Of a stretch of DNA of 64,000 bases, positions 16,729 through 62,195 are shown piece after piece (the stretch's first letter is position 1; every line of letters begins with the position of its first letter). The translations under genes were made by a program, and so were the position numbers. The notes beneath the pieces are model-generated. The model was given only the letters and a program-made list of their open reading frames with translations. It did not search any database and was not told the origin of the DNA. Origin of the DNA: Candidatus Campbellbacteria bacterium (lineage in GTDB: Bacteria > Patescibacteriota > Minisyncoccia > Phycocordibacterales > UBA1006); NCBI GenBank assembly GCA_002698305.1, contig NZWR01000003.1:10794-74793 (forward strand). Reading direction: 5' to 3'.

Positions 16729-16955
16729 AGTATTTACTCTTTTATATATTTAAAATTTATTACTATTACTATTAGGGTTGTTGATACTGTGGAATAGTTT
16801 TAAGAGCTTTTAAATATAAGGTTATTTATAATAATTACCGGTGGTTTGTTGTATGGAAAACTTATGAATATGTTAAGGTTATACACCTTACTAAATATAC
16901 AGCTGTTAGTAACTTATATTTATAAACAGACTATACCTACATAATTCACAGGGTT
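16729..16955. other. AT-rich dnaA-dnaN intergenic region with degenerate DnaA boxes (possible oriC part)
   Basis: TGTGGAATA (16788-16796), TTATACACC and TAATTCACA each have 2 mismatches to TTATCCACA. Long A/T tracts at 16740-16775. Confidence 0.35.
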
Positions 16956-18314
16956 TTACACATCCAAAACAGCTTTAATTTGTTCTATTTCCTGAACAAG
17001 ATTAGGATCTTTTACTAAATTTTCTTTGACGCGTTCGTATGAATGAATAACGGTGGTGTGGTCTCTCCCACCTACCTCTCTCCCAATTGCTGGGTATGAG
17101 ATATTGAAATATTCACGAAGGATATACATGGCTATTTGCCGCACATATACAATTTCTTTTTTACGCGTTTTATCATAAATTTTTTCAGGTTCTATAGAGT
17201 AGAAGCCAGCAACAATTTTTATAATTTCATCCAAAGCGAGGTGTTTCTTGGGTTTAATATTGTTTTTAACAAGAGACTTAACCTCTGTGACTGTAAGTTT
17301 CCTGTCTCTGAGTTCTGATTGTATTCCTATTGCGTTGAGCACTCCTTCAAGCTCTCTAATATTTCCTTCCATACTGTGAGCTATAAACTCACACACATCG
17401 TCACTAAGATCAATATCTCCTTGTAATGCTTTGGTTTTAATAAGAGCAGAGCGCGATTCATAGTTTGGCTTGGTTATATCAACAATCATTCCAGCCGAGA
17501 ATCTCGACCTGAGCCTATCCTCTAGTCCAATTATATAATTAGGGTGCTTATCAGAAGAGAAGATAATTTGCTTACCGTTGTCATATAAAATATTAAACAA
17601 GTGAAATAATTCTTCTTGCAACTTCTCTTTCCCTGAAAAGAATTGAATATCGTCCATAATAAGGACATCATATGAACGGTATTTTTTCTTGAAAGAGTTA
17701 ATGGTGTTATTTTTCAGTGCGTTTACATAATCTTGAGAGAATTTCTCAGAGCTTGTGTAGAAAATATTAGTGTGAGGGTTCTCTTTTTGAATTTTGTTAC
17801 CTGTGGCTTGAATAAGGTGGGTCTTCCCGAGTCCTGTTGATCCGTAGATAAACAAAGGGTTATATACCCCAGGCTTCTTTATAATAGCCTGACTCGCTGA
17901 ATACGCTAATTCATTAAAGGGACCAACAACAAAAGAGTTAAATGAATACTTCTCGTTGAGGTGCGAGTTCCTATCAACAGATTTCTTGGCAAGAGGAAGC
18001 GCTTGCTCACTCCGCTCTTTTGCTGTGCTAGACTCCTCTGTTTTACTTTCTTGTTTGGGGGATTTATTTTTTGAAACAATGAATTCAACTGATTTTATCG
18101 AGGGGTCAAATGATCTTAGTTTTTCAAGAATCATGTCGCTGAACTTAGTGTAAAGCCATTCTTTGTTAAATTCATTAGGTACTCCTACTTTATACACCTC
18201 ATTTTCGTGTGAATATGGAAAGGTCTTTTTAAACCAGGTGTTGTAGTTTGGGCGTGATATTTCAAGCTCTATTTGAGCTAGTGTTTTTTTCCAGAGGGTT
18301 TCTTTGGTGTTCAT
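16956..18314 (-). CDS. dnaA: chromosomal replication initiator DnaA
   Basis: Walker A GSTGLGKTHL, DDIQFFSGKE, box VII RSRF, C-terminal DNA-binding HTTVIHSYERV. Start at ATG 18314 (MNTKETLW), 6 nt downstream of a -10-like ATAACT. Confidence 0.95.
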   Translation of the reverse strand: MNTKETLWKKTLAQIELEISRPNYNTWFKKTFPYSHENEVYKVGVPNEFNKEWLYTKFSDMILEKLRSFDPSIKSVEFIVSKNKSPKQESKTEESSTAKERSEQALPLAKKSVDRNSHLNEKYSFNSFVVGPFNELAYSASQAIIKKPGVYNPLFIYGSTGLGKTHLIQATGNKIQKENPHTNIFYTSSEKFSQDYVNALKNNTINSFKKKYRSYDVLIMDDIQFFSGKEKLQEELFHLFNILYDNGKQIIFSSDKHPNYIIGLEDRLRSRFSAGMIVDITKPNYESRSALIKTKALQGDIDLSDDVCEFIAHSMEGNIRELEGVLNAIGIQSELRDRKLTVTEVKSLVKNNIKPKKHLALDEIIKIVAGFYSIEPEKIYDKTRKKEIVYVRQIAMYILREYFNISYPAIGREVGGRDHTTVIHSYERVKENLVKDPNLVQEIEQIKAVLDV

Positions 18315-18496
18315 AGTAGCAGTTATATACAGCATTATAGTATGTTGTGGAAAAAAAGAAAATCTGTGAATAACTATGTTTTTCTGTTAATAAGTATCTC
18401 TAATAACTTTTTGTAAAATAAAAAAGTTCCTATTGAGTTTTTTTTAATAGTGTACTAATATGTGAGTCATTATCTTATTAATCTAATTAACATTGT
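18315..18496. other. dnaA-rpmH divergent intergenic region, candidate oriC / dnaA promoter region
   Basis: Two one-mismatch DnaA boxes in the same orientation, TGTGGAAAA (18346-18354) and TGTGAATAA (18365-18373), followed by very AT-rich sequence. Confidence 0.45.
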
Positions 18497-21331: not shown

Positions 21332-23176
21332 TTAGTTTACAAACTGATTTGTGTCTTTGTTCTTTAGTTCCTCTTTTGCTTTTTTAATCGACAGAACTTG
21401 AGCAGGATCAGAGGTGATAATTTGGTCTTCGGTATATGAGGCGATAATTTTAATTGCAACATGTTTCAGTCCCGCAAAGAAGATTCCTTCTCCAACATTT
21501 GATTCAATTAATAAATACTTCTCTTCATCAGTAAGTCTGAAAATCTCCTGAAGGTTATCGATAGCACTTGGCGATTGTTTTAAGAGTAATTGCATCGATG
21601 AGTTGGTGATAATAGGAACACCGTAACGTGACTTGATAAAGTCACCGACGTCCTGAGTAATAGTTGCAAGCCCAAGGAAGTATTTACGTCCACGCTTAGC
21701 AATCATAAACAAGAATGATGCGGTATCATCTGATTTCATCATCCACCACGCCTCATCCACCACAAGGAGACGTTTCTTAATATCTTTACGGACAGCATTC
21801 CAAATAAACTGCGTGATGATATACATCGCTGCAGGCTTCAGCTCATCCTCCATATCTCGGATAGAGAATACAACAAGCTTTCTGTTAATATCCACGTTTG
21901 AAGGTTTGTTAATAAACCCAGACCAGGTTCCTCGCGTATATTTTGTTAGTCGTGTTAACAAAGATTCACTTCCTTCCATTGAAGAAAGCACCATTTCAAA
22001 GTCTGACATCAAGGGCGGCTCAATGTCTGAGTAATCGCTGTTAGGGGTGATATCTTTCAAGGCATAGGTTTCAGTAATAGCCCTATCAACCACTGAATCT
22101 TCTTCTGGTGTTAGACCTCCAAGCATGATCCTAAAGAGCCCTACGAGGTGAATAATATGGGTCCTAAGAACATCTGCTGGATCCTCGTCATCGAGCGGCT
22201 TTGGTACATCAAAAGGGTTGATGTGGTGCTCGGAAGAGAGGGAGATGTTAAAGTATCGTCCTCCTACGGCCTCGGCAAGGTATTCATATTCACGTTCAGG
22301 GTCAATAACGATAACTTCGGTATCAAACATCATTGTTCGCAGAATCTCAAGCTTTGTAGCATATGATTTTCCGGCTCCAGAAGTCGCAAAGATTACTGAG
22401 TTGTAGTTTGGTAGTGAATAGCGATCAAAAATAACGAGCCCTGAGTTGTGGCGGTTAATTCCGTACAAAATTCCTTTGTTGTCAGTGAGTTCTGATGAGA
22501 TAAAAGGGAAAAATGATGAAACGGGTCCGGTATTCAGTTTAGTGTGCACCTGTAACTGGTCGTTCCCAACAGGGGCAACTGACATAAACCCTTCAACTTG
22601 CTGGAAGAGTGCTGGTTTTAGATAGATAAGCTTTGATTCTAAGAGTGACCTAATTTCATTCTCAGTTTTAAAGAGCTCGTCTTCATCATCAGCATAAATA
22701 GTGATATAGAGACCAACAGAAAAGATTTTTTCCTGAGCTTGTTGCAGGGAGTCACGAAGTTGTTCAAGGTCACGATACGCAGTATCAAGGATTGGATCGC
22801 GAACGAGCCCTTTTGATTCTCGGGTGCTAATCTGTGACTGCACTTCGGCAACCTTTTTTTTGAATTGACTCAGAATTTTTTCAGTAGCAATAGGATGAAT
22901 ATGAATTCCAATATCAAAAACCTTATCAAGGTTAACGATTGGGGCGAGCCACCCGTCAGTAAGGTACCGAGGGTATGACATTACAAAAAAGGTTCGTGAT
23001 GTCTTGCCAGCGATACGGATAGATTTAGAGCTGACTTCAAGGGCTGCAGGAGCAAGAATATCTTGAAGCTGCAATTTCGCCGATTGATAAATTTCTCCTG
23101 GAAGCACAGGAACAGCAGTTGTTTTGATTTCTTCTTTTGGTTTAGAATTACCTAAAAGATCAGATAGTAGTGACAT
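21332..23176 (-). CDS. virB4: VirB4/TraC-type type IV secretion ATPase
   Basis: Walker A FATSGAGKSYATK, Walker B LLVVDEAWWMM, downstream GLATITQD. Start moved to ATG 23176 (MSLLSDLL), with TGGTATACT 6 nt upstream. Confidence 0.85.
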   Translation of the reverse strand: MSLLSDLLGNSKPKEEIKTTAVPVLPGEIYQSAKLQLQDILAPAALEVSSKSIRIAGKTSRTFFVMSYPRYLTDGWLAPIVNLDKVFDIGIHIHPIATEKILSQFKKKVAEVQSQISTRESKGLVRDPILDTAYRDLEQLRDSLQQAQEKIFSVGLYITIYADDEDELFKTENEIRSLLESKLIYLKPALFQQVEGFMSVAPVGNDQLQVHTKLNTGPVSSFFPFISSELTDNKGILYGINRHNSGLVIFDRYSLPNYNSVIFATSGAGKSYATKLEILRTMMFDTEVIVIDPEREYEYLAEAVGGRYFNISLSSEHHINPFDVPKPLDDEDPADVLRTHIIHLVGLFRIMLGGLTPEEDSVVDRAITETYALKDITPNSDYSDIEPPLMSDFEMVLSSMEGSESLLTRLTKYTRGTWSGFINKPSNVDINRKLVVFSIRDMEDELKPAAMYIITQFIWNAVRKDIKKRLLVVDEAWWMMKSDDTASFLFMIAKRGRKYFLGLATITQDVGDFIKSRYGVPIITNSSMQLLLKQSPSAIDNLQEIFRLTDEEKYLLIESNVGEGIFFAGLKHVAIKIIASYTEDQIITSDPAQVLSIKKAKEELKNKDTNQFVN

Positions 23177-23244
23177 GACACTAGTATACCAAGTACCTGC
23201 ATTAAAATAAAACACAAAATCAATGGTCTATAGTGTGGAATTAT

Positions 23245-41031: not shown

Positions 41032-41147
41032 GCGGGCGTAGTTTATAAAGCTAGAATATTGGTACTCCAACTAGCTGAGGGGTGACTAGATGTCACACCG
41101 AAGAAGAGTTCGATTCGAATTCTCGTATCACTAAACTACGTCTACCA
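41032..41147 (+). ncRNA. tRNA-Gly-derived tRNA-like RNA: 12-bp terminal helix ending in an encoded ACCA, not a canonical cloverleaf
   Basis: The first 14 nt are identical to the adjacent tRNA-Gly. 41034-41045 pairs with 41132-41143 (12 bp, with G:U at helix positions 1 and 3), followed by ACCA. Internal hairpins: GCTAG/CTAGC and GGTGAC/GTCAC. A T-loop-like GAGTTCGATTC is present, but there is no acceptor/T-arm arrangement. Confidence 0.45.
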
Positions 41148-41153
41148 AAATAT

Positions 41154-41224
41154 GCGGGCGTAGTTTAGTGGTAGAATATCTGGCTTCCAACCAGAGGACG
41201 AGAGTTCGATTCTCTCCGCCCGCA
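41154..41224 (+). tRNA. tRNA-Gly (anticodon UCC), no encoded CCA
   Basis: Manual cloverleaf: acceptor GCGGGCG/CGCCCGC, anticodon arm TCTGG-CTTCCAA-CCAGA, T-arm GAGAG-TTCGATT-CTCTC, discriminator A. Confidence 0.9.
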
Positions 41225-41296
41225 CATCAGAAAAAACCCTTATTTTTACGGGTTTTTTCTTGTACACGTGGAGGGAAGTATAGTACAAATCGAAAC
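41225..41296 (+). repeat. junction element copy A (abuts the tRNA-Gly 3' end)
   Basis: CAGAAAAAACCC-hairpin-GGGTTTTTTCTT, then the right arm GTACACGTGGAGGGAAGTATAGTACAAATCGAAAC. Homologous to copies B and C. Confidence 0.6.
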
Positions 41297-41420
41297 ATAT
41301 ATATCTGTAGATGGATAACTTGACAATAGATATTATATATGATATATTTAAATTGAACTACTTTTAGTGAGTTAAAGCAGTAGATAATGTCTTTTGCTTT
41401 AACTCACTAAAAAAAGAAAA

Positions 41421-41624
41421 ATGAGAACAATTCAATTTATGTTTATCGATAAAGTTTCTGGTAAGGTTTATACTAACAAAATAGAAACTGACAAAAAAAT
41501 GACAGAGGATAATATACATCATCCCGAAGAAAGTTACGCTCTAAAAGCAGAACTAACTAAAGACTATGATGAAATAACATTTGCTCGTCAAATAATAATT
41601 ACGTCTTGGAGTATTTTTGAGTAA
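41421..41624 (+). CDS. module 1: 67-aa hypothetical protein
   Basis: Preceded by TTGACA-17-TATATT (41320-41348) and an 18-bp leader hairpin (41362-41412). Followed by terminator AACCCTTTC..GAAAGGGTT. Confidence 0.45.
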   Translation: MRTIQFMFIDKVSGKVYTNKIETDKKMTEDNIHHPEESYALKAELTKDYDEITFARQIIITSWSIFE

Positions 41625-41693
41625 AATATTTGAAATACTACTAACCCTTTCTTCATAGAAAGGGTTTTTTACTTATCATCTACAATTATATCC

Positions 41694-41836
41694 GTTCGAA
41701 CACTGTCCCACATCGTGCACACCAGAAAAAACCCTTACAAAATAAGGGTTTTTTCTTATACGCCAGTAAAATAACGAACTGTATTTTACAAGTACTCTTG
41801 GGGTGCACGTGGAGGGGAATATGGAGTAAATCGAAC
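41694..41836 (+). repeat. junction element copy B (~143-bp imperfect inverted repeat)
   Basis: Left arm GTTCGAACACTGTCCCACATCGTGCAC (41694-41720), central terminator-like hairpin AAAAAACCCTTA..TAAGGGTTTTTT, right arm GTGCACGTGGAGGGGAATATGGAGTAAATCGAAC (41803-41836). Confidence 0.7.
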
Positions 41837-41899
41837 TATAATAAAAAAGTACCTCGAACAGAATGTGTTCGAGGTGTTTTTTGTTTACTTTTTAACTCT

Positions 41900-42229
41900 T
41901 TAAATCTTCGCCACCTGCTTTGATTTATAAAGAATTGTTATTCCTAAAATCAAGAATGATAAGCAATACATAATCAAAACTTTATTTCCTACCAGGCTTC
42001 CGTATTGTGTATATGAGCCAATAATAAAAACTGGCATTATCACAAATATGAAGAGCATAACGAAACCCTTAAAAGTCTTAAATTGATTATATGATTCTAG
42101 AACCTTATCGGTTTGTGTAAGTTTGTTCTTTTCCATCCAAGAAATTTGAATATTAAACATACTTGCAACAAAGGAAGAAAAGATAATAGTACCGACCGCA
42201 GTAACGATGTATAAAATTGTGTAAATCAT
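41900..42229 (-). CDS. module 2: 109-aa three-TM membrane protein
   Basis: Hydrophobic helices throughout. Divergent TTGACA/TTGACT promoters at ~42265-42300. Confidence 0.5.
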   Translation of the reverse strand: MIYTILYIVTAVGTIIFSSFVASMFNIQISWMEKNKLTQTDKVLESYNQFKTFKGFVMLFIFVIMPVFIIGSYTQYGSLVGNKVLIMYCLSFLILGITILYKSKQVAKI

Positions 42230-42352
42230 GATAAATTGAATTTGTTTACTTAAATATTGTCATTTTATATTGACTTTGTCAAATAAATATACTATATTTA
42301 TTTACAAACAAGCCATGAACTAACGATTGGCACGACAAAAAAATAAGAGAAG

Positions 42353-43006
42353 ATGAAAACTTTTAAAATTATTTTATCTTGGACAACCGTCCTGTTACTT
42401 ATTGGTAGTGCCATATGGTACTCCTGGTTAACAATAATTGGAGAGATACGTCCTGTTACAACAACTTTTATTCTTGCTTTTATATACTTCACAATTTCTG
42501 AAGCTGCCTATTGGTCAAAAGCAAAGAAAGACGAGATAAGAACAGGTAACAAAACAAGTATTTGGAATAACATGGCTATGCATGCAGGTTATGTAAATGT
42601 AATCATGGCCATGCTAACTGTGATAGGTGTTAAAATCTATAATGGAAATTTCATTGACGATTTTAATATTTTTCAATACATATGTCTCATTTTAAGCGCA
42701 ATAGTACTTATCATCTGGAAGCTAACTAAAAACGCTCAATTGGGATTTGTACTGGTTCAGCTTGTTGCTGTTATTGCCTACATTCCAATGTTCCAGAGAG
42801 TTCTTGTAACAGAGGTTCAAACAGAATCGAACGTTATGTGGGTAGCAATATTATTTGCCTCATTAACAGCAATTCCAAAAGTATGGGAAGGCTACAAAAA
42901 GAACAAAGACTGGTTAAGTATTGTTTATATAGCGAGGGTAATACCTTCAAATATTGCATTAGTTTGTCTAGTATTCGCAAAAGATATAGGAATATACCCA
43001 TTTTAA
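42353..43006 (+). CDS. module 2: 217-aa polytopic membrane protein
   Basis: 6-7 predicted TM helices. Promoter TTGACT-17-TATATT upstream. Confidence 0.55.
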   Translation: MKTFKIILSWTTVLLLIGSAIWYSWLTIIGEIRPVTTTFILAFIYFTISEAAYWSKAKKDEIRTGNKTSIWNNMAMHAGYVNVIMAMLTVIGVKIYNGNFIDDFNIFQYICLILSAIVLIIWKLTKNAQLGFVLVQLVAVIAYIPMFQRVLVTEVQTESNVMWVAILFASLTAIPKVWEGYKKNKDWLSIVYIARVIPSNIALVCLVFAKDIGIYPF

Positions 43007-43016
43007 AATTAGATCT

Positions 43017-43208
43017 ATGAAAAAATTAAAAATTATTTCAAGTTACTCAGCGGAAATTGCCGAGCAAGATTACAATAGCTGGCGTAGCGAAAAAGGCAAA
43101 AAAATTGAAATCGTAGAAAAAGAACATCACGTAACCTCAGCATATCACGCAGAGAGAAAGAGAATGGTTCAAGAGTATACTGTTTTTATTTACTATACGT
43201 CCAAATAA
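43017..43208 (+). CDS. module 2: 63-aa hypothetical protein
   Basis: ORF 10 nt after the previous stop. Followed by terminator AGCCCA..TGGGCT. Confidence 0.45.
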   Translation: MKKLKIISSYSAEIAEQDYNSWRSEKGKKIEIVEKEHHVTSAYHAERKRMVQEYTVFIYYTSK

Positions 43209-43279
43209 ACCCAAAAGTAAAAACTGGTTTAGCCCACTGCATTATGCATGGGCTTTTTTATTCCATATTTAATATATTT

Positions 43280-43578
43280 GTTCGAACACTGTCCCACATC
43301 GTGCACAAATTTTTAAGAAATAACGCGAAAGCGTTTTTCTTTTTAAATTTTGTATGATTCTAGTCGTCATCCATCGTGGTGACCGATTCTCCGCCCGCAG
43401 GACTTATTTCTAAAGAGCGATAGCGACTATAGAAATAGAACTACCCCTGTGGTGCAACAGAAAAACCCTTTATTTGTAAGGGTTTTTTCTTATACGCCAG
43501 TGAGGTAGAGAGTGATAACGACTATATTCCACAAGTACTCCTGGGGTGCAGGCGGAGGAAATGTATATCAAATGGAAC
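43280..43578 (+). repeat. junction element copy C (expanded, contains a tRNA-Gly 3' remnant)
   Basis: Identical left arm GTTCGAACACTGTCCCACATCGTGCACA (43280-43307). A ~150-bp insert includes 43384-43399. Conserved centre CAGAAAAACCC..GGGTTTTTTCTTATACGCCAGT. Right arm GTGCAGGCGGAGGAAATGTATATCAAATGGAAC (43546-43578). Confidence 0.7.
43384..43399 (+). pseudogene. partial copy of the tRNA-Gly 3' end (att-like remnant)
   Basis: CGATTCTCCGCCCGCA versus tRNA-Gly CGATTCTCTCCGCCCGCA (2-nt deletion). No 5' half is present. Confidence 0.6.
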
Positions 43579-43610
43579 TTTTTATTGACATATAATAATT
43601 TTAATACAAA

Positions 43611-44027
43611 ATGAAGTTAAATCTTAAAAACTCATTTATTATGATAAGTAAAATTTCATCTTACGGTTGGTTCAAATGGACGCTTTTCATCTTGGCTATC
43701 ACTATATTAGTTAATGTTACTAGTGTCTTTGCACAAGTAAATATAAAAATTGCTTCTTTAGCTTGGTTTGCAGTATTAACTGTTCCACATTTATTTCATA
43801 TTTTTTCTTTAATTATTAATAAAAAAAGAAGAGAAGTGTTTATGTATGTTTCAGGAATAGTGATAATTTTTCAAGCTATCACATACATATTTTTCCCTTT
43901 TGAGACTCTTGGATTTTATCCTGTCTTCATAATCTTTTTTATAGGGGCGAGTAATATTGCTGTATACGAAATATTGAAAACGAAACCAGAAGTTAAAGGA
44001 ATTTCCTTTGAAAATAATAATCCTTAA
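43611..44027 (+). CDS. module 3: 138-aa four-TM membrane protein
   Basis: Hydrophobic helices. TTGACA at 43586-43591 upstream. Confidence 0.5.
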   Translation: MKLNLKNSFIMISKISSYGWFKWTLFILAITILVNVTSVFAQVNIKIASLAWFAVLTVPHLFHIFSLIINKKRREVFMYVSGIVIIFQAITYIFFPFETLGFYPVFIIFFIGASNIAVYEILKTKPEVKGISFENNNP

Positions 44028-44037
44028 AATCAAAATA

Positions 44038-44340
44038 ATGACAAAAATAGTTTCATTCATAGACAAAGAAGAACAATTACTCCTTACTTTGAGATGTAGT
44101 TGTTCTGGAACCCAAGGATGTGACACACATACAGAACTGAGCTTTGCTTATCCTCCTCTTCTTGAACCTAATAATTTTGAGAAAGTTGTTGGTCAATTTA
44201 GTACAAGTAAAAGATCCAAAGATGGTGCCCCAACAGGTGGATTAGTACACGGTACTCTCGAAGATTTATCAGAATTTGCTGATAAATTGAAAGAGATGTG
44301 TGATATAGCAAAAGAAAGAAAATCTAATCTTAAAACCTAA
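44038..44340 (+). CDS. module 3: 100-aa hypothetical protein
   Basis: ATG 44038 (MTKIVSFIDKEEQ) lies 10 nt after the previous stop. Terminator AGCCCAT..ATGGGCT downstream. Confidence 0.45.
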   Translation: MTKIVSFIDKEEQLLLTLRCSCSGTQGCDTHTELSFAYPPLLEPNNFEKVVGQFSTSKRSKDGAPTGGLVHGTLEDLSEFADKLKEMCDIAKERKSNLKT

Positions 44341-44399
44341 AATATTACTGAGCCCATTGCAAATATGCATGGGCTTTTTACTAATCTTTTACTATATCT

Positions 44400-44565
44400 G
44401 TTCGAACACTGTCCCACATCGTGACCCCAAGGGCACTACCATTTGTATATTCACTTCGTTCATTATAAATTAGGGCACACAGGCGAAAAAATCTTTACGT
44501 GGGCGACTGAAGGTTTAGCCTAAGGGTTTTTTCTCTGACACAATGCGGGATTGATGCAATCGAAT
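44400..44565 (+). repeat. junction element copy D (left arm intact, remainder diverged)
   Basis: GTTCGAACACTGTCCCACATCGTG (44400-44423), then a diverged centre with ..CCTAAGGGTTTTTTCT.., and a right end ..GCGGGATTGATGCAATCGAAT. Confidence 0.6.
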
Positions 44566-44594
44566 TTTTATTTGTATATTGATATAATGAAGTT

Positions 44595-45314
44595 ATGAAA
44601 CATAGCTATAAAATTATGGGAATGACGTGCGATAGTTGCAAAGAAAAGATTACTCAAGCGTTACAGTCAATTCCAGAAATATCTGATGTGAAAATAAACA
44701 GAGAACAGGAAACAGCAGAGGTTTTTATGAATGAGCATGTTCAAACACCTACTATGCAGAAATCATTAGATAAAATAGGTAATTATCGAATTTCAATGAA
44801 CGCAGAAATATCTATATCTTCTATGAAAAAGAGTAGCAGTCATATAAAAGATTTAATTCCTTTGTTTGTGATTGTTGGAGCTGTTCTCCTTTTCTCTATT
44901 ATTACTACCCTAACTACTGATCAAGATTTTAGTTTTGGAATGAGAATGTTTATGGGAGGATTTTTTGTGGTCTTTGGAACATTGAAAGCTATTAAACTCA
45001 AAGACTTTGCCATTGCCTACAAGGAGTACGACCTTCTTGCAATGCGAAGTACGTCATATGCCTATTCATATCCATTTATTGAACTTTGTTTAGGTATCTT
45101 ATATTTCACAAATCTTGCACCTTTTGTAACAAATATTATAACTATTTTTATTATGGGAATAGGAGCTGTTGGTGTATATAGAAAATTGCGTAAAAAAGAA
45201 GAAATACCTTGTGCCTGTCTTGGAACCGTATTCAAGGTGCCAATGACGTGGGTAACACTAGTAGAAAATTTACTCATGGTTGCTATGGCAATTATTATGA
45301 TAGTATTGATGTAA
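44595..45314 (+). CDS. module 4: heavy-metal-associated (HMA) domain fused to a MauE/DoxX-like membrane domain
   Basis: YKIMGMTCDSCKEKITQAL (GMTCxxC). Four TM helices with a C-terminal IPCACLG motif. TGaTATAAT lies 6 nt upstream of the ATG. Confidence 0.75.
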   Translation: MKHSYKIMGMTCDSCKEKITQALQSIPEISDVKINREQETAEVFMNEHVQTPTMQKSLDKIGNYRISMNAEISISSMKKSSSHIKDLIPLFVIVGAVLLFSIITTLTTDQDFSFGMRMFMGGFFVVFGTLKAIKLKDFAIAYKEYDLLAMRSTSYAYSYPFIELCLGILYFTNLAPFVTNIITIFIMGIGAVGVYRKLRKKEEIPCACLGTVFKVPMTWVTLVENLLMVAMAIIMIVLM

Positions 45315-45318
45315 TTAT

Positions 45319-45660
45319 ATGTTTCAGAAGACATACAAATTCATAGGAATATTTATAATACTACTGGTACTTGTTGGGCACCATTCTTTTCAAGCAGAGG
45401 CGATGGAAGCTCCAAGTCACCATAATCAAGAAATTTCTTGCATAGGCCACGATTGCCATCATCAAGCAGAAATGGAGATTTGTGAGAAACTACAAGGCGA
45501 TGAAATACAGATAGTTACTGAATTTGTAGTCCTTCTTGAAAATTCTCATTGTGATTTTATTCACACAAGCGAAACAAATACTGTTCCAAATGAGGTATAT
45601 GAAAAATACCGACAGCGGATACCCTTATCCCAAAAACAACTCGCACGTCCCCACTTGTAA
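45319..45660 (+). CDS. module 4: small His/Cys-rich exported protein (putative metal binding)
   Basis: N-terminal TM/signal FIGIFIILLVLVG, then HHSFQAEAMEAPSHHNQEISCIGHDCHHQAEMEICE. Confidence 0.5.
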   Translation: MFQKTYKFIGIFIILLVLVGHHSFQAEAMEAPSHHNQEISCIGHDCHHQAEMEICEKLQGDEIQIVTEFVVLLENSHCDFIHTSETNTVPNEVYEKYRQRIPLSQKQLARPHL

Positions 45661-45709
45661 AATCACAATATCTTTTTATTCGTTTATTTATATAAAAACT
45701 AAAAATACT

Positions 45710-46114
45710 ATGAAAACAAATACACTAATTGCAGTAATTATCTCACTTCTTATTGGAGGAGGGATTGGTTATGCAATGAATAACAATAATGCCCCTATAG
45801 CAGAAGCACCAATGATGATGGATCACTCTATGATGAACCACTCAATGAATATGAATGATATAGGTATGGAAGCAATGATGATGGATATGACAGCCCGCAT
45901 GGAAGGAAAAACAGGAGACGAGCTTGATAGAATTTTCCTTGAAGATATGATCGTTCACCACCAAGGAGCTGTTGATATGGCAATTATCATCAAAGAGAAC
46001 ACCGAGCGACCAGAACTCAAAGCATTTGCACAAGAAATCATTGATGTGCAAGATCAAGAAATCAATATGATGAAGTCTTGGTTGACCGAATGGTTTCTAA
46101 TTGAAGAAAACTAA
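45710..46114 (+). CDS. module 4: DUF305-family protein (metal-related four-helix protein)
   Basis: Start at ATG 45710 (MKTNTLIAVIISLL). Met/His-rich MMMDHSMMNHSMNMN. DUF305 motif FLEDMIVHHQGAVDMA. Confidence 0.7.
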   Translation: MKTNTLIAVIISLLIGGGIGYAMNNNNAPIAEAPMMMDHSMMNHSMNMNDIGMEAMMMDMTARMEGKTGDELDRIFLEDMIVHHQGAVDMAIIIKENTERPELKAFAQEIIDVQDQEINMMKSWLTEWFLIEEN

Positions 46115-46144
46115 ACTTAATCGAGGTGTGAAGATAGGATACTT

Positions 46145-46168
46145 GTTCTAATAGTGCCCCGCATCGTG
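46145..46168 (+). repeat. degenerate fourth copy of the 24-nt left-arm motif
   Basis: GTTCTAATAGTGCCCCGCATCGTG matches GTTCGAACACTGTCCCACATCGTG at 18 of 24 positions. Followed by a bidirectional terminator. Confidence 0.45.
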
Positions 46169-46201
46169 AAAACAAAAAACAGCGCACGCTGTTTTTTGTT
46201 T

Positions 46202-47095
46202 TCAATGACGATGATTGCTGTGTTCCTCGTGTTCTTCTTCGGCTTCTTCAGGATGGTCTTGTTCTTCATATTCATCTCCGTGCTCTTCCTCGTGATTAGA
46301 TTCCTCATCTATAACTGTCATACCTTCTTCATGTTCGTGACTATGTCCTAGTGCTGACGCAATTCCCGTCATAACTAATACCCCTAAAACAAGCGCAGCA
46401 AGCATTTGGCCAACATTCTTTCTATCTTTGAGGATTGTTTTTAATGGAAATAGATCAGTAAATACAATTCCTAAGAAAAAGGTTGCAGTGGCCCCAAGAA
46501 GATAGGCTTGGAGAATTGCACTTTGACCGAGTAACAGCCCGATAGCAATACCAATAAAAATTGATAAGGCGGTCCCAAAATTACGATAGCTTGCTTCGGT
46601 GGTGGTGTATCCTGATTTTCTCAGTACCAGAAATTCTGAAATTTCTTGAGGCGTCTCATGCAAAATAATTGAAAGAGCTGTTGAGCTACCCACTAATGGA
46701 CTGACACCAAATGATGCAACCAAGAGCATTCCATCGGCAATATTATGTACCGCATCACCTATGAGTAATTTCCATGCTGATTTTTTTGAACCTTTGCTGT
46801 GGTCATGGTCCACACCTGCATGTCGGTGCGGCGAAAGGATGTTGTGCAGTATAATATATGCAACAAGACCAATCGCAAATGAAATAATTGCGTTACCCGG
46901 GCTTAGTATTTCAAGGGTTTCTCTTCCTAAAAGAAAGCTTGTTACAAGAAATACTCCAGCACTGACAGCAGTGAGCACGGTAAGATTGCTATTAATAAAT
47001 TCTGCAATGCGGCGGTTTGATCTAACCAACGCTACCCCTAAAATTGATACAAAGGAAATAACTAATCCATATAATAAAACAAGTTCTATATTCAT
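46202..47095 (-). CDS. ZIP-family zinc/metal transporter with His/Glu-rich C-terminal tail
   Basis: HNIADGMLLVASF and HETPQEISEFLVL (ZIP signature helices). Tail HSHEHEEG...EEEHEEHSNHRH. Confidence 0.8.
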   Translation of the reverse strand: MNIELVLLYGLVISFVSILGVALVRSNRRIAEFINSNLTVLTAVSAGVFLVTSFLLGRETLEILSPGNAIISFAIGLVAYIILHNILSPHRHAGVDHDHSKGSKKSAWKLLIGDAVHNIADGMLLVASFGVSPLVGSSTALSIILHETPQEISEFLVLRKSGYTTTEASYRNFGTALSIFIGIAIGLLLGQSAILQAYLLGATATFFLGIVFTDLFPLKTILKDRKNVGQMLAALVLGVLVMTGIASALGHSHEHEEGMTVIDEESNHEEEHGDEYEEQDHPEEAEEEHEEHSNHRH

Positions 47096-47105
47096 ATGTC
47101 GTTAT

Positions 47106-47145
47106 CATATATAAATGCAAATTATTTGCAAATTAATTATTGCAA
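47106..47145. promoter_or_regulatory. two Fur/Zur-box-like palindromes in the divergent ZIP/fur promoter region
   Basis: TGCAAAT-T-ATTTGCA (47106-47120, perfect 7-1-7) and TTGCAATTATTTGCAA (47130-47145), between the starts at 47095 and 47174. Confidence 0.65.
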
Positions 47146-47173
47146 TTATTTGCAAAAATGAAATGATTATTAT

Positions 47174-47569
47174 ATGTACCGAGATATTATAAAAAAAAGT
47201 GGTTTGTCGATAACAACTAAAAGAATAGCACTCTTGTCTGCGCTGGATAAAGCACAGAGGCCTGTTACCATTGATGAATTGCGAAATCAAATGACTGATA
47301 CCATGGATACATCAACTATGTATCGGTCACTCAAGAAGCTTGTCGATGCGGGCATTGTCTATCAGACTGATTTTCGTGACGGGGTTTCGTATTTTGAGCT
47401 TCAAGGTGATAACCATCATCACCATGTGGTGTGTACTGAGTGTAAGTCACGCAAAAGTATCGACATGTGTGTTAACAAGAATTTCAACAAGGTCGAAAAA
47501 GACACGGGATACACTATTACCAATCATATTTTTGAACTCTTTGGATTATGCGAAAACTGCTCATCATAA
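47174..47569 (+). CDS. Fur-family metalloregulator (probably Zur)
   Basis: Winged-helix N-terminus (TTKRIALLSALDKAQRPVTIDEL), HHHHVVCTECKS and C-terminal CENC metal sites. Confidence 0.85.
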   Translation: MYRDIIKKSGLSITTKRIALLSALDKAQRPVTIDELRNQMTDTMDTSTMYRSLKKLVDAGIVYQTDFRDGVSYFELQGDNHHHHVVCTECKSRKSIDMCVNKNFNKVEKDTGYTITNHIFELFGLCENCSS

Positions 47570-48636
47570 TATGCCTTCTCTTTTCTTCTATTGGTGTCTA
47601 TGCGCAAGAAGCTGCTAACTCTCAACCAGAAGAAATATATACAACGAGCTATGTATCAGGAACGGTTATTGAAAAAGAAATAAATGAAAACGGTTTTGTT
47701 AATTACCGAACGCGTCTTCGTGATGGAAGAATAATAGACGTTGATACGTATGGAGAAGTTATAGAGGAAGGTGACTCTATTTATTTAGAACACTTAGAAG
47801 ACTTGGGTGAATACAATTTCATCACTGTTAATCGGAGCACCAGTGTTATCCTACTCCTCATTCTTTTTGTGGGAAGTATTATTGTGCTTGCTAAAAAGAA
47901 AGGCCTACGCTCACTTGGAAGTTTGATAATAAGTATGGCGCTCTTATTCTTTGGTTTGGTTCCTTTGCTGCTTTCTGGTGTTGATCCAGTACTGGTTACC
48001 ATATTGTTTGGGCTTGGGGTGTTGTTTGTCAGCATCTTTGTCACCCATGGATTTAATTACCAAAGTTTGGTCTCCTTTTTGGGTTCATTTGGGTCGGTGC
48101 TCTTGGCCATCGTGTTAATTGCGTTGGTAAGCGAGTATTCATCTTTAACGGGACTGATTAATGACGAGATTCAGTTCCTCTCTTTTGAATCGGAAAAAGT
48201 GCTGAATCTTACGAGAATTATCTCAGCATCAATTATTATCGGAGTGCTTGGAGTTCTGGATGATATTACGATAACGCAGGTTGCGGTAGTGCGTGAATTA
48301 TCATCTGATACGACACTGACCCGGTCACATATTTTTACCAAGGCTTTGCGTGTTGGAAGAGATCATATTTCATCACTGGTTAATACCCTCGTTTTTGCGT
48401 ACGTCGGGGCTACACTGCCAATGATTATGTTTATTACCTTGTTAGATATCCCTTTCTATATACTAATCAGCCAGGAATTTATTTTTATTGAAATTATTCG
48501 CTCGCTGATTGGGGCTATTGCATTGACGCTTGCTGTTCCTTTGACGACATGGCTTGCTACTCACGTCTTCTTGGGGCATATCCACCGAGATGCGTGTACT
48601 TTGGATTCAGCATGTGCTCATCATCACCATCATTAA
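47548..48636 (+). CDS. YibE/F-like polytopic membrane protein with C-terminal His tag-like tail
   Basis: Signal plus extracytoplasmic N-domain, about 7 TM helices, GVLGVLDDITITQVAVV motif, ends CAHHHHH. Overlaps the fur stop by 22 nt. Confidence 0.6.
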   Translation: MRKLLIIICLLFSSIGVYAQEAANSQPEEIYTTSYVSGTVIEKEINENGFVNYRTRLRDGRIIDVDTYGEVIEEGDSIYLEHLEDLGEYNFITVNRSTSVILLLILFVGSIIVLAKKKGLRSLGSLIISMALLFFGLVPLLLSGVDPVLVTILFGLGVLFVSIFVTHGFNYQSLVSFLGSFGSVLLAIVLIALVSEYSSLTGLINDEIQFLSFESEKVLNLTRIISASIIIGVLGVLDDITITQVAVVRELSSDTTLTRSHIFTKALRVGRDHISSLVNTLVFAYVGATLPMIMFITLLDIPFYILISQEFIFIEIIRSLIGAIALTLAVPLTTWLATHVFLGHIHRDACTLDSACAHHHHH

Positions 48637-48661: not shown

Positions 48662-49081
48662 TTAATTCAGCAAGCTTGATTTAAATATTTCAGGCATATG
48701 AGATGGTATCTCAATAACTTTAAAACCATATTTTTCTTGAACGCTACCAAGAGCTTCTTGCAGTGCCTTTTGGTCATAGCCAACAAAAACAACATCTGGG
48801 CGCTGTTCTTCTAGGGCATTCCATTGACCTAATATCTTATCGCCAGTAACCACGTTTACACTTTTGAAAGTACGGCGAATATCAGTCATCCGCTCTTTTT
48901 GATTTTTTCTAGGTGCTCTTTCTTTAATTTTTTTGATGACACTGTCATCTGCTACTGATACGTATAATGTATCTACTTTTAAAAGCGCTTGAGCAATTAA
49001 AAATCTATGCCCCTCATGAATACCGTCAAATGTTCCAAATAAAAGCCCTACCAATTTTTCTCGCCTCTTTTTTGTGTGCAT
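48662..49081 (-). CDS. cytidylyl/adenylyltransferase-family protein (CTP_transf_like)
   Basis: GLLFGTFDGIHEGHRFLI (the (T/H)xGH nucleotidyltransferase motif). Start at ATG 49081, with TATACT 6 nt upstream. Confidence 0.7.
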   Translation of the reverse strand: MHTKKRREKLVGLLFGTFDGIHEGHRFLIAQALLKVDTLYVSVADDSVIKKIKERAPRKNQKERMTDIRRTFKSVNVVTGDKILGQWNALEEQRPDVVFVGYDQKALQEALGSVQEKYGFKVIEIPSHMPEIFKSSLLN

Positions 49082-49087
49082 GGTGAC

Positions 49088-49126
49088 AGTATAGCGTATT
49101 GGATTCCCGGTGTATTCTCGTATACT
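49088..49126. promoter_or_regulatory. back-to-back divergent TATACT -10 boxes, each 6 nt from its ATG
   Basis: Minus-strand TATACT at 49088-49093 serves ATG 49081. Plus-strand TATACT at 49121-49126 serves ATG 49133. Confidence 0.55.
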
Positions 49127-49132
49127 AATGAT

Positions 49133-50458
49133 ATGGAACATATTTCAAACCAAGAGTCACAACAAGAAAGCAGAGCAGAGTTTTCTCCTGAGCTTAACAA
49201 AAGAATCGTGGATAACATTATTGAAAAAACATCTGAATCAGATTTGAGCCAAGAGCATTTAGATGAGATTCAAAGAGAGCTAGAGAGACCTAATAGTCCT
49301 GTATTCAAAGCTACTCTTGAGGCAGAGTCTCAAAAGATAAATTTAAGAAAATTTGTTGCGCTGGCAATGGTGACCTTGTCGCCATTTTTGGCAAAAGCCA
49401 ACACATCAGAAAGTCCTGAAACCCTTACATCATCTGCTGCTAAAGAGGTTACTCTAGATACTGATGCTAGGGCAGAAGATGGAGAGATCATTTCATACGA
49501 AAAAGCGAGTAGATTATCGTCAGAAACCGAGCCTGAAGAAATTAACCCAACCAGTGAAGAAAAATCTATCAAACGAATGGAATCAAAAATTGATTTTGAA
49601 ATAGCAAAGACAGATATCAACCAAGCTGACCTTGAAGCCCTTAATTACGAGGTGGCGCAATTTATTGAAAGCTTTGATAGTGAAGATCTAGAGAAAATCA
49701 AAAATGGATCAATGATTGTTGTTGTTTCTGCCGGATCAAGCCCGGAGATAATCAAGGCTCCCATCGAAACAAGCATGGGAAGTGTAACAAACAATTATGA
49801 GCTCTCCCAAATGCGTGCAGAAGTGTATGTAGAAAAAGTATTAGCTGCCTTACAAGAAAAGGGTATCAATAACCCTATTACTATTACGGATATTGCAGAG
49901 GTGCCAGGGTTAGAGCCAGGCGTTTCAGAAAATGGTGAGCGTTTTGCCTCAGTGACAGCATTAGAGCTCACTAATGAAAATCTTGTTCAGATGGCTGATA
50001 CCATTATTTTGGATAGATCTGGGTCAATGAAAGATGATGTTGCTGAATTAGAATCAGCAAATCAGCTAGCTGAACAAGGCGCACAACTTGTCACCCTCGA
50101 AACACATAAAGGAAAAAACGGTGAAATTCTCGAGATGTATTTCTCTTCAATGCAAGATCAGGTACATAAGGCCAAACCTGGCGATGTGATTGTGATGATT
50201 GGCGATGAAAAATCTGATGATGGCCACCAATTTAAAACCGCAGAAGAAAGAAGTGAAAATTATCGAAAAATGTTTCTTGATATAAAACAGCAAGCAGAAG
50301 AAAAAGGGCTAACACTACTCGTGAAACGTAATAATCCAGATAACCCTGATGACTCAATTATTGGAGATTTTACAACATCTGGAATGATGATGACCCTAGG
50401 TTCAGATGACCAAGAATCATATAAAAGACACAAGCACTATCTTGATACCAAAGCATAA
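49133..50458 (+). CDS. acidic protein with one TM and a C-terminal von Willebrand A-like domain
   Basis: MIDAS-like IILDRSGSMKDD, later VIVMIGDEKSDDG. Hydrophobic FVALAMVTLSPFLA near residue 70. Confidence 0.6.
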   Translation: MEHISNQESQQESRAEFSPELNKRIVDNIIEKTSESDLSQEHLDEIQRELERPNSPVFKATLEAESQKINLRKFVALAMVTLSPFLAKANTSESPETLTSSAAKEVTLDTDARAEDGEIISYEKASRLSSETEPEEINPTSEEKSIKRMESKIDFEIAKTDINQADLEALNYEVAQFIESFDSEDLEKIKNGSMIVVVSAGSSPEIIKAPIETSMGSVTNNYELSQMRAEVYVEKVLAALQEKGINNPITITDIAEVPGLEPGVSENGERFASVTALELTNENLVQMADTIILDRSGSMKDDVAELESANQLAEQGAQLVTLETHKGKNGEILEMYFSSMQDQVHKAKPGDVIVMIGDEKSDDGHQFKTAEERSENYRKMFLDIKQQAEEKGLTLLVKRNNPDNPDDSIIGDFTTSGMMMTLGSDDQESYKRHKHYLDTKA

Positions 50459-61283: not shown

Positions 61284-62195
61284 TTATTTATTATGAAACT
61301 TCTTGTGTACTTCACGCAGTTGTTTGTCGGTTATATGTGTATAGATCTGAGTTGTTGCGATATTGCTATGCCCTAGCATCATTTGGACACTGCGTATGTC
61401 AGCACCGTTTCGCAGTAAATCAGTTGCAAATGAATGTCTAATGGTGTGCGGGGTAACCTTTTTAGCGATACCCGCTTCAATTGCAATTCGTTTCACCAGG
61501 CGTTCCACACTTCGCGGTGTAAGGCGGAGTGAAACATTTTGCTCTTCAAGTTTCACGACTCTAGGGCCTTCCTGGATAAACAGGGCTTCGTCCATGTCGG
61601 TGCGGTTATTCAGATACTCACGGACACTTTCTCGTGCTTTTGGACTTAAAAAGACAATTCTTAATTTGTCTCCTTTTCCACGAATCGTCATCTCGTCCTT
61701 TGAAAGATCTATGTCTCTGTTTAACGAGGTAAGTTCAGAAACACGCAGTCCCGTAGAAAAGAGCATGTGCATGATGGCATAGTTTCGTTGATGCTTTTGC
61801 GCGACATCGAGCATGCGCTGTAATTCAGTAACATCAAGATGATCTATGTGACGAGCTTCTGTTTTAGCCAGTTCAATATTTTCTGGTGAGTACACCTTGT
61901 GACCCTGCTTCATTAAATATTTAAGAAACATACGAAGAGCTATCAGGTAATAATTCTGAGTTCTTTTTTTCATGGTTCCTGACTGCTGGCCTTTTGTCTT
62001 TGCTCCAGGCTGTCGGTTAAGGTGGAGGCGGAATTGGCGGATGCTCTCTGCATCAATAACATCTATTTTTTTGATGCCAGAAAATTCAATATATTTTGAA
62101 ATATATTGTTTATAGTTTCGGACGGTTTTGAGTGACCGCCCTTTTTCAATCTCGAGGTATTCAAGGAATCGTTGTAGTGCTTCATTAATATTCAC
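61284..62195 (-). CDS. tyrosine recombinase, XerC/XerD-like
   Basis: SAM-like N-domain. Catalytic RVSE..., HTIRHSFATDLL, LGHSNIATTQIYTHI. Confidence 0.85.
   Translation of the reverse strand: MNINEALQRFLEYLEIEKGRSLKTVRNYKQYISKYIEFSGIKKIDVIDAESIRQFRLHLNRQPGAKTKGQQSGTMKKRTQNYYLIALRMFLKYLMKQGHKVYSPENIELAKTEARHIDHLDVTELQRMLDVAQKHQRNYAIMHMLFSTGLRVSELTSLNRDIDLSKDEMTIRGKGDKLRIVFLSPKARESVREYLNNRTDMDEALFIQEGPRVVKLEEQNVSLRLTPRSVERLVKRIAIEAGIAKKVTPHTIRHSFATDLLRNGADIRSVQMMLGHSNIATTQIYTHITDKQLREVHKKFHNK

Follow-up and report, generated by a model that had tools for sequence, protein, structure and literature searches.

A tandem array of small recombinase-less gene cassettes behind tRNA-Gly(TCC) in a marine Patescibacteria genome

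Organization of the array

The contig NZWR01000003.1 of Candidatus Campbellbacteria bacterium (assembly GCA_002698305.1), a marine member of the Patescibacteria or Candidate Phyla Radiation (CPR), carries four small gene units stacked directly 3′ of tRNA-Gly(TCC). They are described here within the window, the 64-kb stretch at positions 10,794 to 74,793 of the contig that was analyzed as a whole and in whose own numbering all coordinates are given. Each unit follows the same order: CACA plus 2-4 nt, a terminator-type hairpin, a right arm (RA), a promoter, one to three open reading frames (ORFs), a terminator, about 22 loosely conserved nucleotides and a left arm (LEFT). The array contains four RAs and four LEFTs. 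Before the first hairpin the place of LEFT is occupied by the 3′ end of the tRNA, as a preliminary description of this DNA had recognized. That description also held every module to be bounded by the same composite element, of about 140 bp. Arms do flank all four modules, but the last LEFT, at 46145, is followed by no RA, only by a bidirectional terminator (46167-46204) and a ZIP gene, and the length is not constant: the junctions measure 71 nt after the tRNA and then 143, 299 and 165 nt, the longer ones holding extra cargo-less mini-insertions.

The units possess their own promoters and terminators, in agreement with the earlier account. Sigma-70-like, promoter-like sites lie about 20-25 nt past each RA (41320, 42270/42282, 43585 and 44551), and a terminator precedes every LEFT. 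The gene content is likewise as first reported, including the HMA-MauE fusion, the His/Cys-rich protein of 113 aa and the DUF305 protein of unit 4, and the genes of unit 2 occupy both strands. Known families are limited to the unit 4 genes and a weak DUF1304 match in unit 2, the remaining ORFs belonging to no known family. The GC content of the array is 32-35%, against 37-42% in its flanks, a foreign composition. Table 1 gives the features of the locus; L001, L003 and similar numbers denote related loci with which the window was compared.

Table 1. Features of the tRNA-Gly-linked array and of the element directly upstream (window coordinates)
Feature	Position	Strand	Basis or occurrence
tRNA-Gly-derived tRNA-like element, directly upstream of tRNA-Gly	41032..41146	+	conserved in L001, L003, L033
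tRNA-Gly(TCC), array anchor; 3′ end ...CCGCCCG^CACA is the putative insertion point	41154..41225	+	ARAGORN; Rfam 74 bits
Unit 1 terminator-type hairpin AAAAAACCC...GGGTTTTTT	41231..41258	+	sequence reading, repeat search, folding
Unit 1 RA TGTACACGTGGAGGGAAGTATAGTACAAATCGAAAC	41261..41296	+	nhmmer RA model, 41.9 bits
Unit 1 cargo: promoter-like site 41320-41348; ORF 41421-41624 (67 aa, no family); terminator 41643-41666	41297..41693	+	
Unit 1 LEFT, 24-mer plus CACA	41694..41721	+	repeat search, nhmmer
Unit 2 terminator-type hairpin	41726..41755	+	repeat search, folding
Unit 2 RA, after an extension of about 45 nt (41756-41802)	41803..41836	+	repeat search; nhmmer 35.1 bits
Unit 2 cargo: ORFs 41900-42229 (-, 109 aa membrane protein), 42353-43006 (+, 217 aa, weak DUF1304 match), 43017-43208 (+, 63 aa)	41837..43279		
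Unit 2 LEFT, 24-mer plus CACA	43280..43307	+	nhmmer 48.4 bits
Two cargo-less mini-units between unit 2 and unit 3	43308..43457	+	homologous junctions in L003, L004, L027
Unit 3 terminator-type hairpin	43461..43488	+	repeat search
Unit 3 RA (degenerate)	43546..43578	+	nhmmer 26.1 bits
Unit 3 cargo: ORFs 43611-44027 (138 aa membrane protein), 44038-44340 (100 aa, Cys-rich)	43579..44399	+	
Unit 3 LEFT; CACA displaced by mini-insertion	44400..44423	+	exact 24-mer
Cargo-less mini-unit ACCCCAAGGGCAC...TTAGGGCACACA at G^CACA	44424..44481	+	same type in L009, L027
Unit 4 RA GACACAATGCGGGATTGATGCAATCGAA	44537..44564	+	nhmmer 27.5 bits
Unit 4 cargo: HMA-MauE fusion 44595-45314; His/Cys-rich 113 aa 45319-45660; DUF305 45710-46114	44565..46144	+	
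Terminal degenerate LEFT (19/24), end of array	46145..46168	+	repeat search; nhmmer 34.5 bits

Sequence and conservation of the arms

LEFT is a 24-mer, GTTCGAACACTGTCCCACATCGTG, found exactly at 41694, 43280 and 44400, as first noted, where 100 shuffles of the sequence predict none. No further copy with three or fewer mismatches occurs in the window; the one at 46145 matches at 19 of 24 positions, not the 18 originally given. Profiles of both arms, built from all known copies and searched with nhmmer, match LEFT at 41687, 43273, 44393 and 46138 and RA at 41250, 41795, 43539 and 44524, and return nothing at E<1 in the rest of the window. RA has the consensus ...CAC(G/A)(A)TG(G/T)(A/G)GGGAAATATG.....AAATCGAAC. 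Together with the hairpin segment, whose repetition had also been reported, it was recovered as a repeat family by a repeat search. The preliminary description had allowed for a generic dispersed repeat, of the repetitive extragenic palindrome (REP) or miniature inverted-repeat transposable element (MITE) kind, scattered without regard to module boundaries. This is rejected, since neither arm occurs outside 41.2-46.2 kb of the window and all other loci that carry the arms hold them in ordered arrays.

RA is an imperfect inverted copy of LEFT with an insertion of about 9 nt. This relationship, proposed at the outset, is clear in relatives but weak in the window. The arms of L001 and L003 place CACAATGTGGGA opposite CACGATGTGGGA, with TCGAAC in common, and score 22.5-23.5, near the 99.9th percentile of random windows; local alignment of the window arms yields 11-17.5 against a null of 10.5 ± 2.3. 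Both arms resemble the 3′ end of tRNA-Gly (GTTCGA...GCAC).

The two arms and their surroundings are conserved to very different degrees. LEFT is nearly invariant across genomes, and its three exact copies in the window compare with 61-85% identity to the reference copy for the pre-LEFT segment, the hairpin and RA. Between L008 and L027 a deaminase cargo gene has 85% DNA identity and the 30 nt before LEFT cannot be aligned, while LEFT itself agrees at 23 of 24 positions; the HU proteins of array-bearing genomes are only 62-89% identical. Conservation of LEFT so far beyond that of the leader or pre-LEFT indicates sequence-specific recognition. In five of the seven multi-unit arrays the most distal LEFT is also the most degenerate, which suggests that older units lie distal to the tRNA.

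When the junctions are folded as single-stranded DNA, GTTCGA pairs with TCGAAC and CCCAC..CGTG with CACG..GGG around the terminator, so that the hairpins anticipated in the preliminary description can form by LEFT-RA pairing. Six of seven folded sequences (five junctions, two of them on both strands) reach z-scores of -3.5 to -7.1. The variant LEFT at 46145 carries CCCGCAT, matched by ATGCGGG in the RA of its own unit 4, which is the partner that this LEFT would meet in an excised circle. The junctions match no Rfam family at the gathering threshold or at E<=1.

Translated from the minus strand, LEFT (41694-41721, 43280-43307, 44400-44423 and 46145-46168) gives the peptide ...C-A-R-C-G-T-(V/L)-F-E-(Q/R)-(I/V), often followed by a stop. 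Differences between copies in this frame are mostly synonymous or conservative and fall on third codon positions (CTG/CTA, TGT/TGC, TTC/TTT, ACA/ACG). That LEFT is the 3′ end of a gene was considered and rejected: in 30 copies the open frame spans just 9-78 codons and is not conserved upstream.

Unit boundaries and cargo-less mini-units

Comparison between loci places the ends of the units with nucleotide precision. All units begin right after ...G^CACA and end in ...G^CACA. In L011 a leader of about 250 nt is identical after the tRNA and after the first LEFT, the identity starting at GCACA in both positions. In L014 the flanking sequence CCGAGGGAAACG directly follows LEFT-GCACA; in L008 the same flank follows LEFT-GCACA plus a 118-nt unit, designated X, whose last part is a tRNA 3′-end copy with GCACA. 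The X core unit is present a second time in L008, between the tRNA and the first hairpin. Cargo-bearing and cargo-less units alike end in YG^CACA, and the exact boundary at G^CACA is shared by five different unit types. By these comparisons the unit is CACA-hairpin-RA-cargo-LEFT, and neither RA-to-LEFT nor cargo plus a whole junction, which accounts for a first junction without LEFT and a last one without RA. A crossover in the T-loop (GTTCGA) is rejected for the tRNA-proximal junction because the tRNA retains its own 3′ end.

Three cargo-less mini-units interrupt the junctions of the window. An X-type unit in 43308-43457 has its own terminator (43322-43335) and ends in the remnant of the tRNA-Gly 3′ end that had been spotted at 43384-43399, which carries a 2-nt deletion. 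It is followed by a unit of the type GGACTTATTT...GTGGTGCA (about 43400-43457), also found in L027. The third, of the type ACCCCAAGGGCAC...TTAGGGCGCACA, occupies 44424-44481 and recurs in L009 and L027. X units differ from cargo units in their ends: their flanking direct repeats copy the tRNA 3′ end (GATTCTCTCCRCCCGCACA) and their RA-like arm repeats the tRNA end itself in inverted orientation, whereas cargo units end in LEFT instead, which has only GTTCGA and GCACA in common with the tRNA end.

Families of cargo-less mini-insertions range from 45 to 190 nt and were also observed in L009 (about 430-510) and L027 (5340-5400, 8225-8330 and 10370-10473). One family forms a hairpin, ATTTGTA-TATTCACTTCGTTCAT-TATAAAT, whose loop sequence recurs in L001, beside tRNA-Pro, within a non-coding stretch of structured appearance (about 130-320).

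Related loci and their cargo

The exact 24-mer is present in one GTDB representative, a Ca. Pacebacteria metagenome-assembled genome (MAG; L001). A degenerate LEFT pattern retrieved 12 genuine metagenome contigs and 2 chance matches, and loci gathered through HU homologs added a full array (L027) and a degenerate one (L031). Arm order was compared in 16 loci, namely the window, the 12 metagenome contigs, the GTDB MAG, L027 and L031. In all of them RA and LEFT alternate strictly (RA>LEFT) on one strand, and the cargo is almost wholly different.

Wherever the locus of an array-bearing relative includes the tRNA (6/6: L001, L003, L008, L011, L012 and L031), the array lies directly downstream of tRNA-Gly on the same strand. 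These six share the place, the arms and the G^CACA boundaries with the window and differ in cargo and unit number, which supports the original suggestion of repeated site-specific insertion at the tRNA-Gly 3′ end. In L030, L032, L033 and L034 tRNA-Gly is present and no arms are found.

Few cargo genes recur between loci. L001 holds one unit with a TrmB-like regulator and a cysteine-synthase-like, pyridoxal-phosphate-dependent enzyme, as judged from sequence reading. L003 holds at least three units, with a TauE-like permease, kinases, a histidine phosphatase, a helix-turn-helix-phosphoribosyltransferase and a deaminase. L011 has two units; methyltransferases occur in L005 and L011, and further arrays carry MOSC and HAD proteins and, in L027, ZnuABC. 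The homology of window unit 3 to the first, tRNA-proximal unit of L012 extends over the module as a whole (RA, promoter, ORF2, pre-LEFT and LEFT), at 68% amino acid and 74% nucleotide identity. The position of this shared module differs, being third in the window and first in L012. Homologs of the last two genes of unit 4 adjoin tRNA-Gly in L034. There is no support for the deaminase module having passed recently between L008 and L027: its 85% nucleotide identity, against 78% for HU, fits vertical descent.

Candidate recombinases

No integrase lies in the array, as noted from the start. Pfam and NCBIfam scans of most large window ORFs and of the cargo of related loci identified a 303-aa tyrosine recombinase of the Xer type (61284-62195), 15 kb from the array, as the sole recombinase of the window. 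It passes the XerA-type NCBIfam model ('site-specific tyrosine recombinase/integron integrase') with 229.5 bits against a cut-off of 220, lies below the XerC and XerD cut-offs, and falls under both integron-integrase cut-offs (139 against 265 bits and 89 against 435 bits). The preliminary description had singled out this gene as a possible cognate enzyme. Its Xer character is borne out, but a syntenic copy in the array-free loci L030 and L034 marks it as an enzyme of the housekeeping type, present with or without arrays. The same scans of large ORFs detected no transposase in the window; the other large ORFs are ordinary and include dnaA, dnaN, RuvB, RuvC, a penicillin-binding protein, a PilB-like ATPase and a TraG-like protein.

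A proposed model of serial integration

The preferred reading, given a probability of roughly 0.55, is that the locus is a tandem array of recombinase-less cassettes, built up through successive site-specific recombination events at the tRNA-Gly(TCC) 3′ end and mobilized in trans. The anatomy of the units, their restriction to the locus, their common boundaries and the between-species differences in cargo and copy number are directly observed. The model adds circular intermediates, a crossover position, a trans-acting enzyme and any present-day activity, all of which are postulated. The mobile unit would comprise CACA, the terminator hairpin, RA, promoter, cargo, terminator and LEFT ending in ...YG. 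Its circular form would juxtapose LEFT, CACA, hairpin and RA, creating an attP-like site of about 100-140 bp in which two inverted protein-binding arms flank the crossover. This site would recombine with a chromosomal ...G^CACA, either at the tRNA end or at the LEFT of a resident cassette that mimics it (GTTCGA...GCACA). Insertion is predicted to regenerate the target, and cassettes could thereby pile up. The enzyme would act in trans, its gene being at another genomic location or on an unseen element; the Xer-type enzyme of this genome is the only candidate seen here.

Several observations weigh against this reading. No recombinase was found in any of about 17 arrays by the Pfam and NCBIfam scans of cargo, and viral contigs with the site yielded none either; three viral-contig scans gave no genuine site and one chance match in a high-GC phage. 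The arrays of L007 and L027 open with a LEFT that stands alone, no tRNA being within reach, that of L007 sitting after a clpB fragment, so the tRNA is not the sole possible anchor. LEFT itself may be a sufficient target, or these contigs may be rearranged or contain assembly joins across a repeat. The sequence shared by the tRNA end and LEFT falls short of what tRNA-targeting tyrosine integrases typically use, a 6-8-bp overlap plus core sites, and arms 45-150 nt apart are unlike a simple core site. The z-scores of the folded junctions are mostly driven by the terminator hairpin. Variation in RA is not generally compensated in LEFT, which hardly varies. Some modules look vertically inherited, which implies slow turnover.

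Strain-level data point the same way. The window is 100% identical to Tara Oceans contigs, whose HU protein is labeled at NCBI as that of Candidatus Campbellbacteria, a Patescibacteria/Paceibacteria group, and strain contigs were collected by two exact-protein look-ups, with HU and with the unit 1 ORF. Wherever contigs of the window population cover the array they are 100% identical and have the same module order, with no excised form, empty site or reshuffled form among them. Two near-identical variant contigs (98.6% and 99.2%) stop at or before the tRNA. The comparison of module presence and absence proposed in the preliminary description thus reveals variation in cargo and unit number between species, but a fixed order within the window population; since the population contigs are all identical, present-day mobility is conjectural.

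Many population contigs end inside junction elements or the tRNA: L022 at a point equivalent to window 41796, L020 at 43369, L040 at about 43557, and L019, the 98.6%-identical strain, at 41189 within tRNA-Gly. This is the pattern expected of repeat-induced assembly breaks.

Alternative explanations

The main rival is homologous recombination through conserved junctions after DNA uptake. The locus would then be a hypervariable island maintained without any dedicated site-specific recombinase, its junctions (terminator, promoter leader and LEFT) acting as insulators or regulatory modules and the conserved ends as short homology arms by which cassettes are gained, lost or exchanged. Such a process would need no recombinase in the arrays, where none was found, and the genome contains genes for a type IV pilus ATPase and RuvABC components, besides others resembling those of a type IV secretion system (T4SS). 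The identical leaders of L011, about 250 nt long, are as expected if recombination in the leader placed the second unit. Stability of the arrays within the population, the apparently vertical modules and the variability of the region downstream of tRNA-Gly even in relatives without LEFT and RA are also accommodated. An arm of 24-28 nt, however, is very short for RecA-dependent recombination, and conservation of LEFT far above that of the leader or pre-LEFT argues against mere homology arms. The nucleotide-exact G^CACA boundaries of five unit types, cargo-less ones included, would be left unexplained, and the inverted geometry of the arms would have no role. This explanation is regarded as unlikely, although it fares best among the alternatives to serial site-specific integration.

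The inverted arms could instead be read as terminal inverted repeats. Non-autonomous cassettes running from RA to LEFT, akin to mobile insertion cassettes (MICs) or MITEs, would depend for their movement on a DDE transposase encoded elsewhere and would strongly favor the tRNA-Gly terminator region as target. The imperfect inversion of LEFT in RA (in L001, CACAATGTGGGA opposite CACGATGTGGGA, with TCGAAC in common), outer ends with a TG...CA pattern (5′-TGTRCAC...GTGCACA-3′) and the matched change in both arms of unit 4 are consistent with this proposal. Against it, comparison of the L011 leaders and of L008 with L014 locates the boundaries at CACA, ahead of the hairpin, rather than where RA begins, so the inverted repeats are not terminal. 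Neither RA nor LEFT is accompanied by target-site duplications, no copy lies outside the array in the 64 kb, the scans of the window's large ORFs detected no transposase, and the arrays of L007 and L027 begin with LEFT, not RA. Cassettes of this kind are accordingly judged improbable.

The integron label attached in the preliminary description does not hold. Integron attC sites carry R″ (RYYYAAC) and R′ (GTTRRRY) boxes, and their structure is conserved while their sequence varies. An IntI-type tyrosine recombinase carries an IntI-specific insertion and adjoins attI and the promoter Pc, and integron cassettes are mostly promoterless single ORFs in one orientation. An integron remnant, or cluster of attC sites lacking integron-integrases (CALIN), recombined by an IntI-type integrase elsewhere, would share with the present locus the ordered array of small cassettes, the absence of an integrase and junctions that can fold as imperfect hairpins with two paired boxes and an unpaired spacer. 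The terminal boxes, however, do not fit the attC pattern: the junction starts with GTTCGAAC and ends in ATCGAAC, and neither strand has GTTRRRY at its 3′ end. Conservation of the site is not just structural but extends to its sequence, the cassettes have their own promoters and terminators and genes on both strands, and the last one lacks a complete site. With the sole tyrosine recombinase below both integron-integrase cut-offs and syntenic in array-free relatives, attC boxes, IntI and promoterless cassettes all fail, and a CALIN is very improbable.

Two further candidates were rejected. Sites of the Xer/dif type are related to the host dif and span 28 bp, with two partly palindromic 11-bp arms around a 6-bp center. 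LEFT plus CACA is also 28 nt long, but its 11-nt halves show no dyad symmetry on inspection, which speaks against an Xer-dependent element such as an integrative mobile element exploiting Xer (IMEX) or a pdif module; the array lies about 23 kb from dnaA, not at the terminus. A phage or plasmid origin found no supporting match in the viral-contig scans or in blastn searches of the junction, which matched nothing among phages and, among plasmids, yielded the terminator hairpin alone, in Spiroplasma plasmids.

Comparison with known systems

Tandem tRNA-linked islands and their integrase-less derivatives are already known. A close analogy for serial integration is with cis-mobilizable elements (CIMEs), as in the ICESt1/CIME model, which have lost or never had integration genes, keep both att ends and stand in tandem at the 3′ end of a target gene, newcomers integrating into the regenerated att site (PMC5704250). 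The array likewise has no integrase inside, retains both ends and lies at a tRNA 3′ end on the same strand in the window and six relatives, L007 and L027 being the exceptions. It differs in its tiny units (0.4-1.6 kb) of uniform layout, in a repeated end that is a distinct sequence of 24-28 nt merely resembling the target gene end, and in the inverted second arm that each unit has beyond the terminator. No recombinase-bearing parent element was seen for it: searches of metagenome and viral contigs and of population contigs detected no related autonomous element or excision product.

A second parallel is offered by the ssrA islands of Dehalococcoides, which resemble staphylococcal cassette chromosome (SCC) elements with a CcrB-like serine recombinase. 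These tandem islands also lie downstream of a small RNA gene, have low GC, are bounded by a repeat plus an adjacent conserved element-specific motif, and include members without an integration module that were proposed to be cis-mobilizable (PMC3146451). They measure 10-30 kb, 16 of those identified carry a six-gene integration module, and the repeat that bounds them duplicates 20 bp of the ssrA 3′ end faithfully, the insertion site lying in the T-loop (PMC3146451). In the array described here, insertion appears to take place at the extreme 3′ terminus (G^CACA), and the scans detected no serine recombinase.

The tycheposons of Prochlorococcus likewise form tRNA-linked islands in a marine streamlined genome, with successive integrations pushing older elements inward, adaptive cargo that includes metal and nutrient genes, and degenerate remnants (bioRxiv 10.1101/2020.12.28.424599). 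They encode tyrosine recombinases and replication modules and are separated by partial tRNA copies (bioRxiv 10.1101/2020.12.28.424599), whereas the present units have neither module and, apart from the cargo-less X units, no partial tRNA copies. MICs and MITEs also place passenger genes between inverted repeats with no transposase inside; here the repeats are not terminal, target-site duplications are absent and the array is confined to a single locus instead of being dispersed.

Integrons and CALINs are similar in their fixed platform, their ordered small recombinase-less cassettes and an end site able to form an imperfect hairpin. The array differs from them in having no IntI, attI or Pc, in the sequence conservation of its site and in a crossover that appears to fall between the arms and not at the base of a hairpin. 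By analogy, accretion at tRNA-Gly would work like that of a CIME or a pseudo-SCC element while being functionally integron-like. Literature searches returned no description of such arrays in CPR/Patescibacteria, nor of the combination of tiny uniform self-expressing cassettes, a conserved end other than a tRNA copy, a second, inverted arm past the terminator, cargo-less G^CACA mini-units and a CPR host.

A more far-reaching proposal, offered tentatively and considered possible rather than probable, is that a Paceibacteria (CPR) lineage has an undescribed integron-like capture system. A simple and strongly conserved LEFT of about 28 nt (...YG^CACA) would be recombined by a chromosomal enzyme, possibly the one Xer-type recombinase of the genome, with the tRNA-Gly 3′ end as primary dock. 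Cassettes would arrive as complete expression units (insulating terminator, promoter, genes, terminator), and the inverted RA would allow the excised circle, or a single strand, to fold the arms into a site.

CPR/Patescibacteria genomes are very small, and how they gain and lose accessory genes is poorly understood. If serial integration is correct, stacking ready-to-express mini-cassettes at a dedicated docking site would give these symbionts a compact means of adaptive gene turnover, the observed cargo as a whole covering metal homeostasis, transporters, kinases, methyltransferases, deaminases and regulators. The near-invariant site of 24-28 nt would serve as a handle for finding the recombinase and for cataloguing the cassette pool of metagenomes, and possibly as the basis of a site-specific integration tool in organisms without genetic tools. 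Even as fossils, the arrays would point to a recombination hot spot peculiar to the lineage and to a source of assembly breaks at the locus.

Neighborhood of the array

Directly upstream of tRNA-Gly lies a tRNA-like element derived from it. Its first 38 nt or so repeat, in diverged form, the 5′ half of tRNA-Gly up to and including the TCC anticodon loop; a long variable hairpin comes next, and then a 3′ tail that pairs with the 5′ end. Neither ARAGORN nor Rfam calls it as a tRNA or RNA family. Further copies lie in L001 (4560-4678, minus strand) and, in tandem, in L003 (711-833 and 834-956); RNAalifold on five copies predicts 31 pairs, five with compensatory double changes. The element is treated as context and may not belong to the cassette system. 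It may be a functional tRNA-derived RNA, or it may represent 5′ halves displaced by integrations on the other side of the tRNA. In L027 the HU gene is followed by about 450 nt of non-coding, structured-looking sequence (1806-2250) in place of this element and tRNA-Gly; its cassette array has the opposite orientation, and no tRNA occurs in its 11.8 kb.

Downstream, a metal-homeostasis cluster of a ZIP transporter (minus strand), Fur and YibE/F (46202-48636) separates the last LEFT from the first gene that the window shares with L001 and L003, an FAD-synthetase-like cytidylyltransferase (48662-49141). The cluster is absent from both of these loci and may be an older part of the island without recognizable arms. 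About 23 kb upstream of the array lie dnaN and dnaA, which places the array near the likely replication origin. Genes for a TraG-like P-loop ATPase and for a TseH-like protein are close by, the whole group falling within 15628-18335 and 21332-23215. The latter two genes belong to a T4SS-like cluster, which L032 also has, with TraC-like and PrgI genes.

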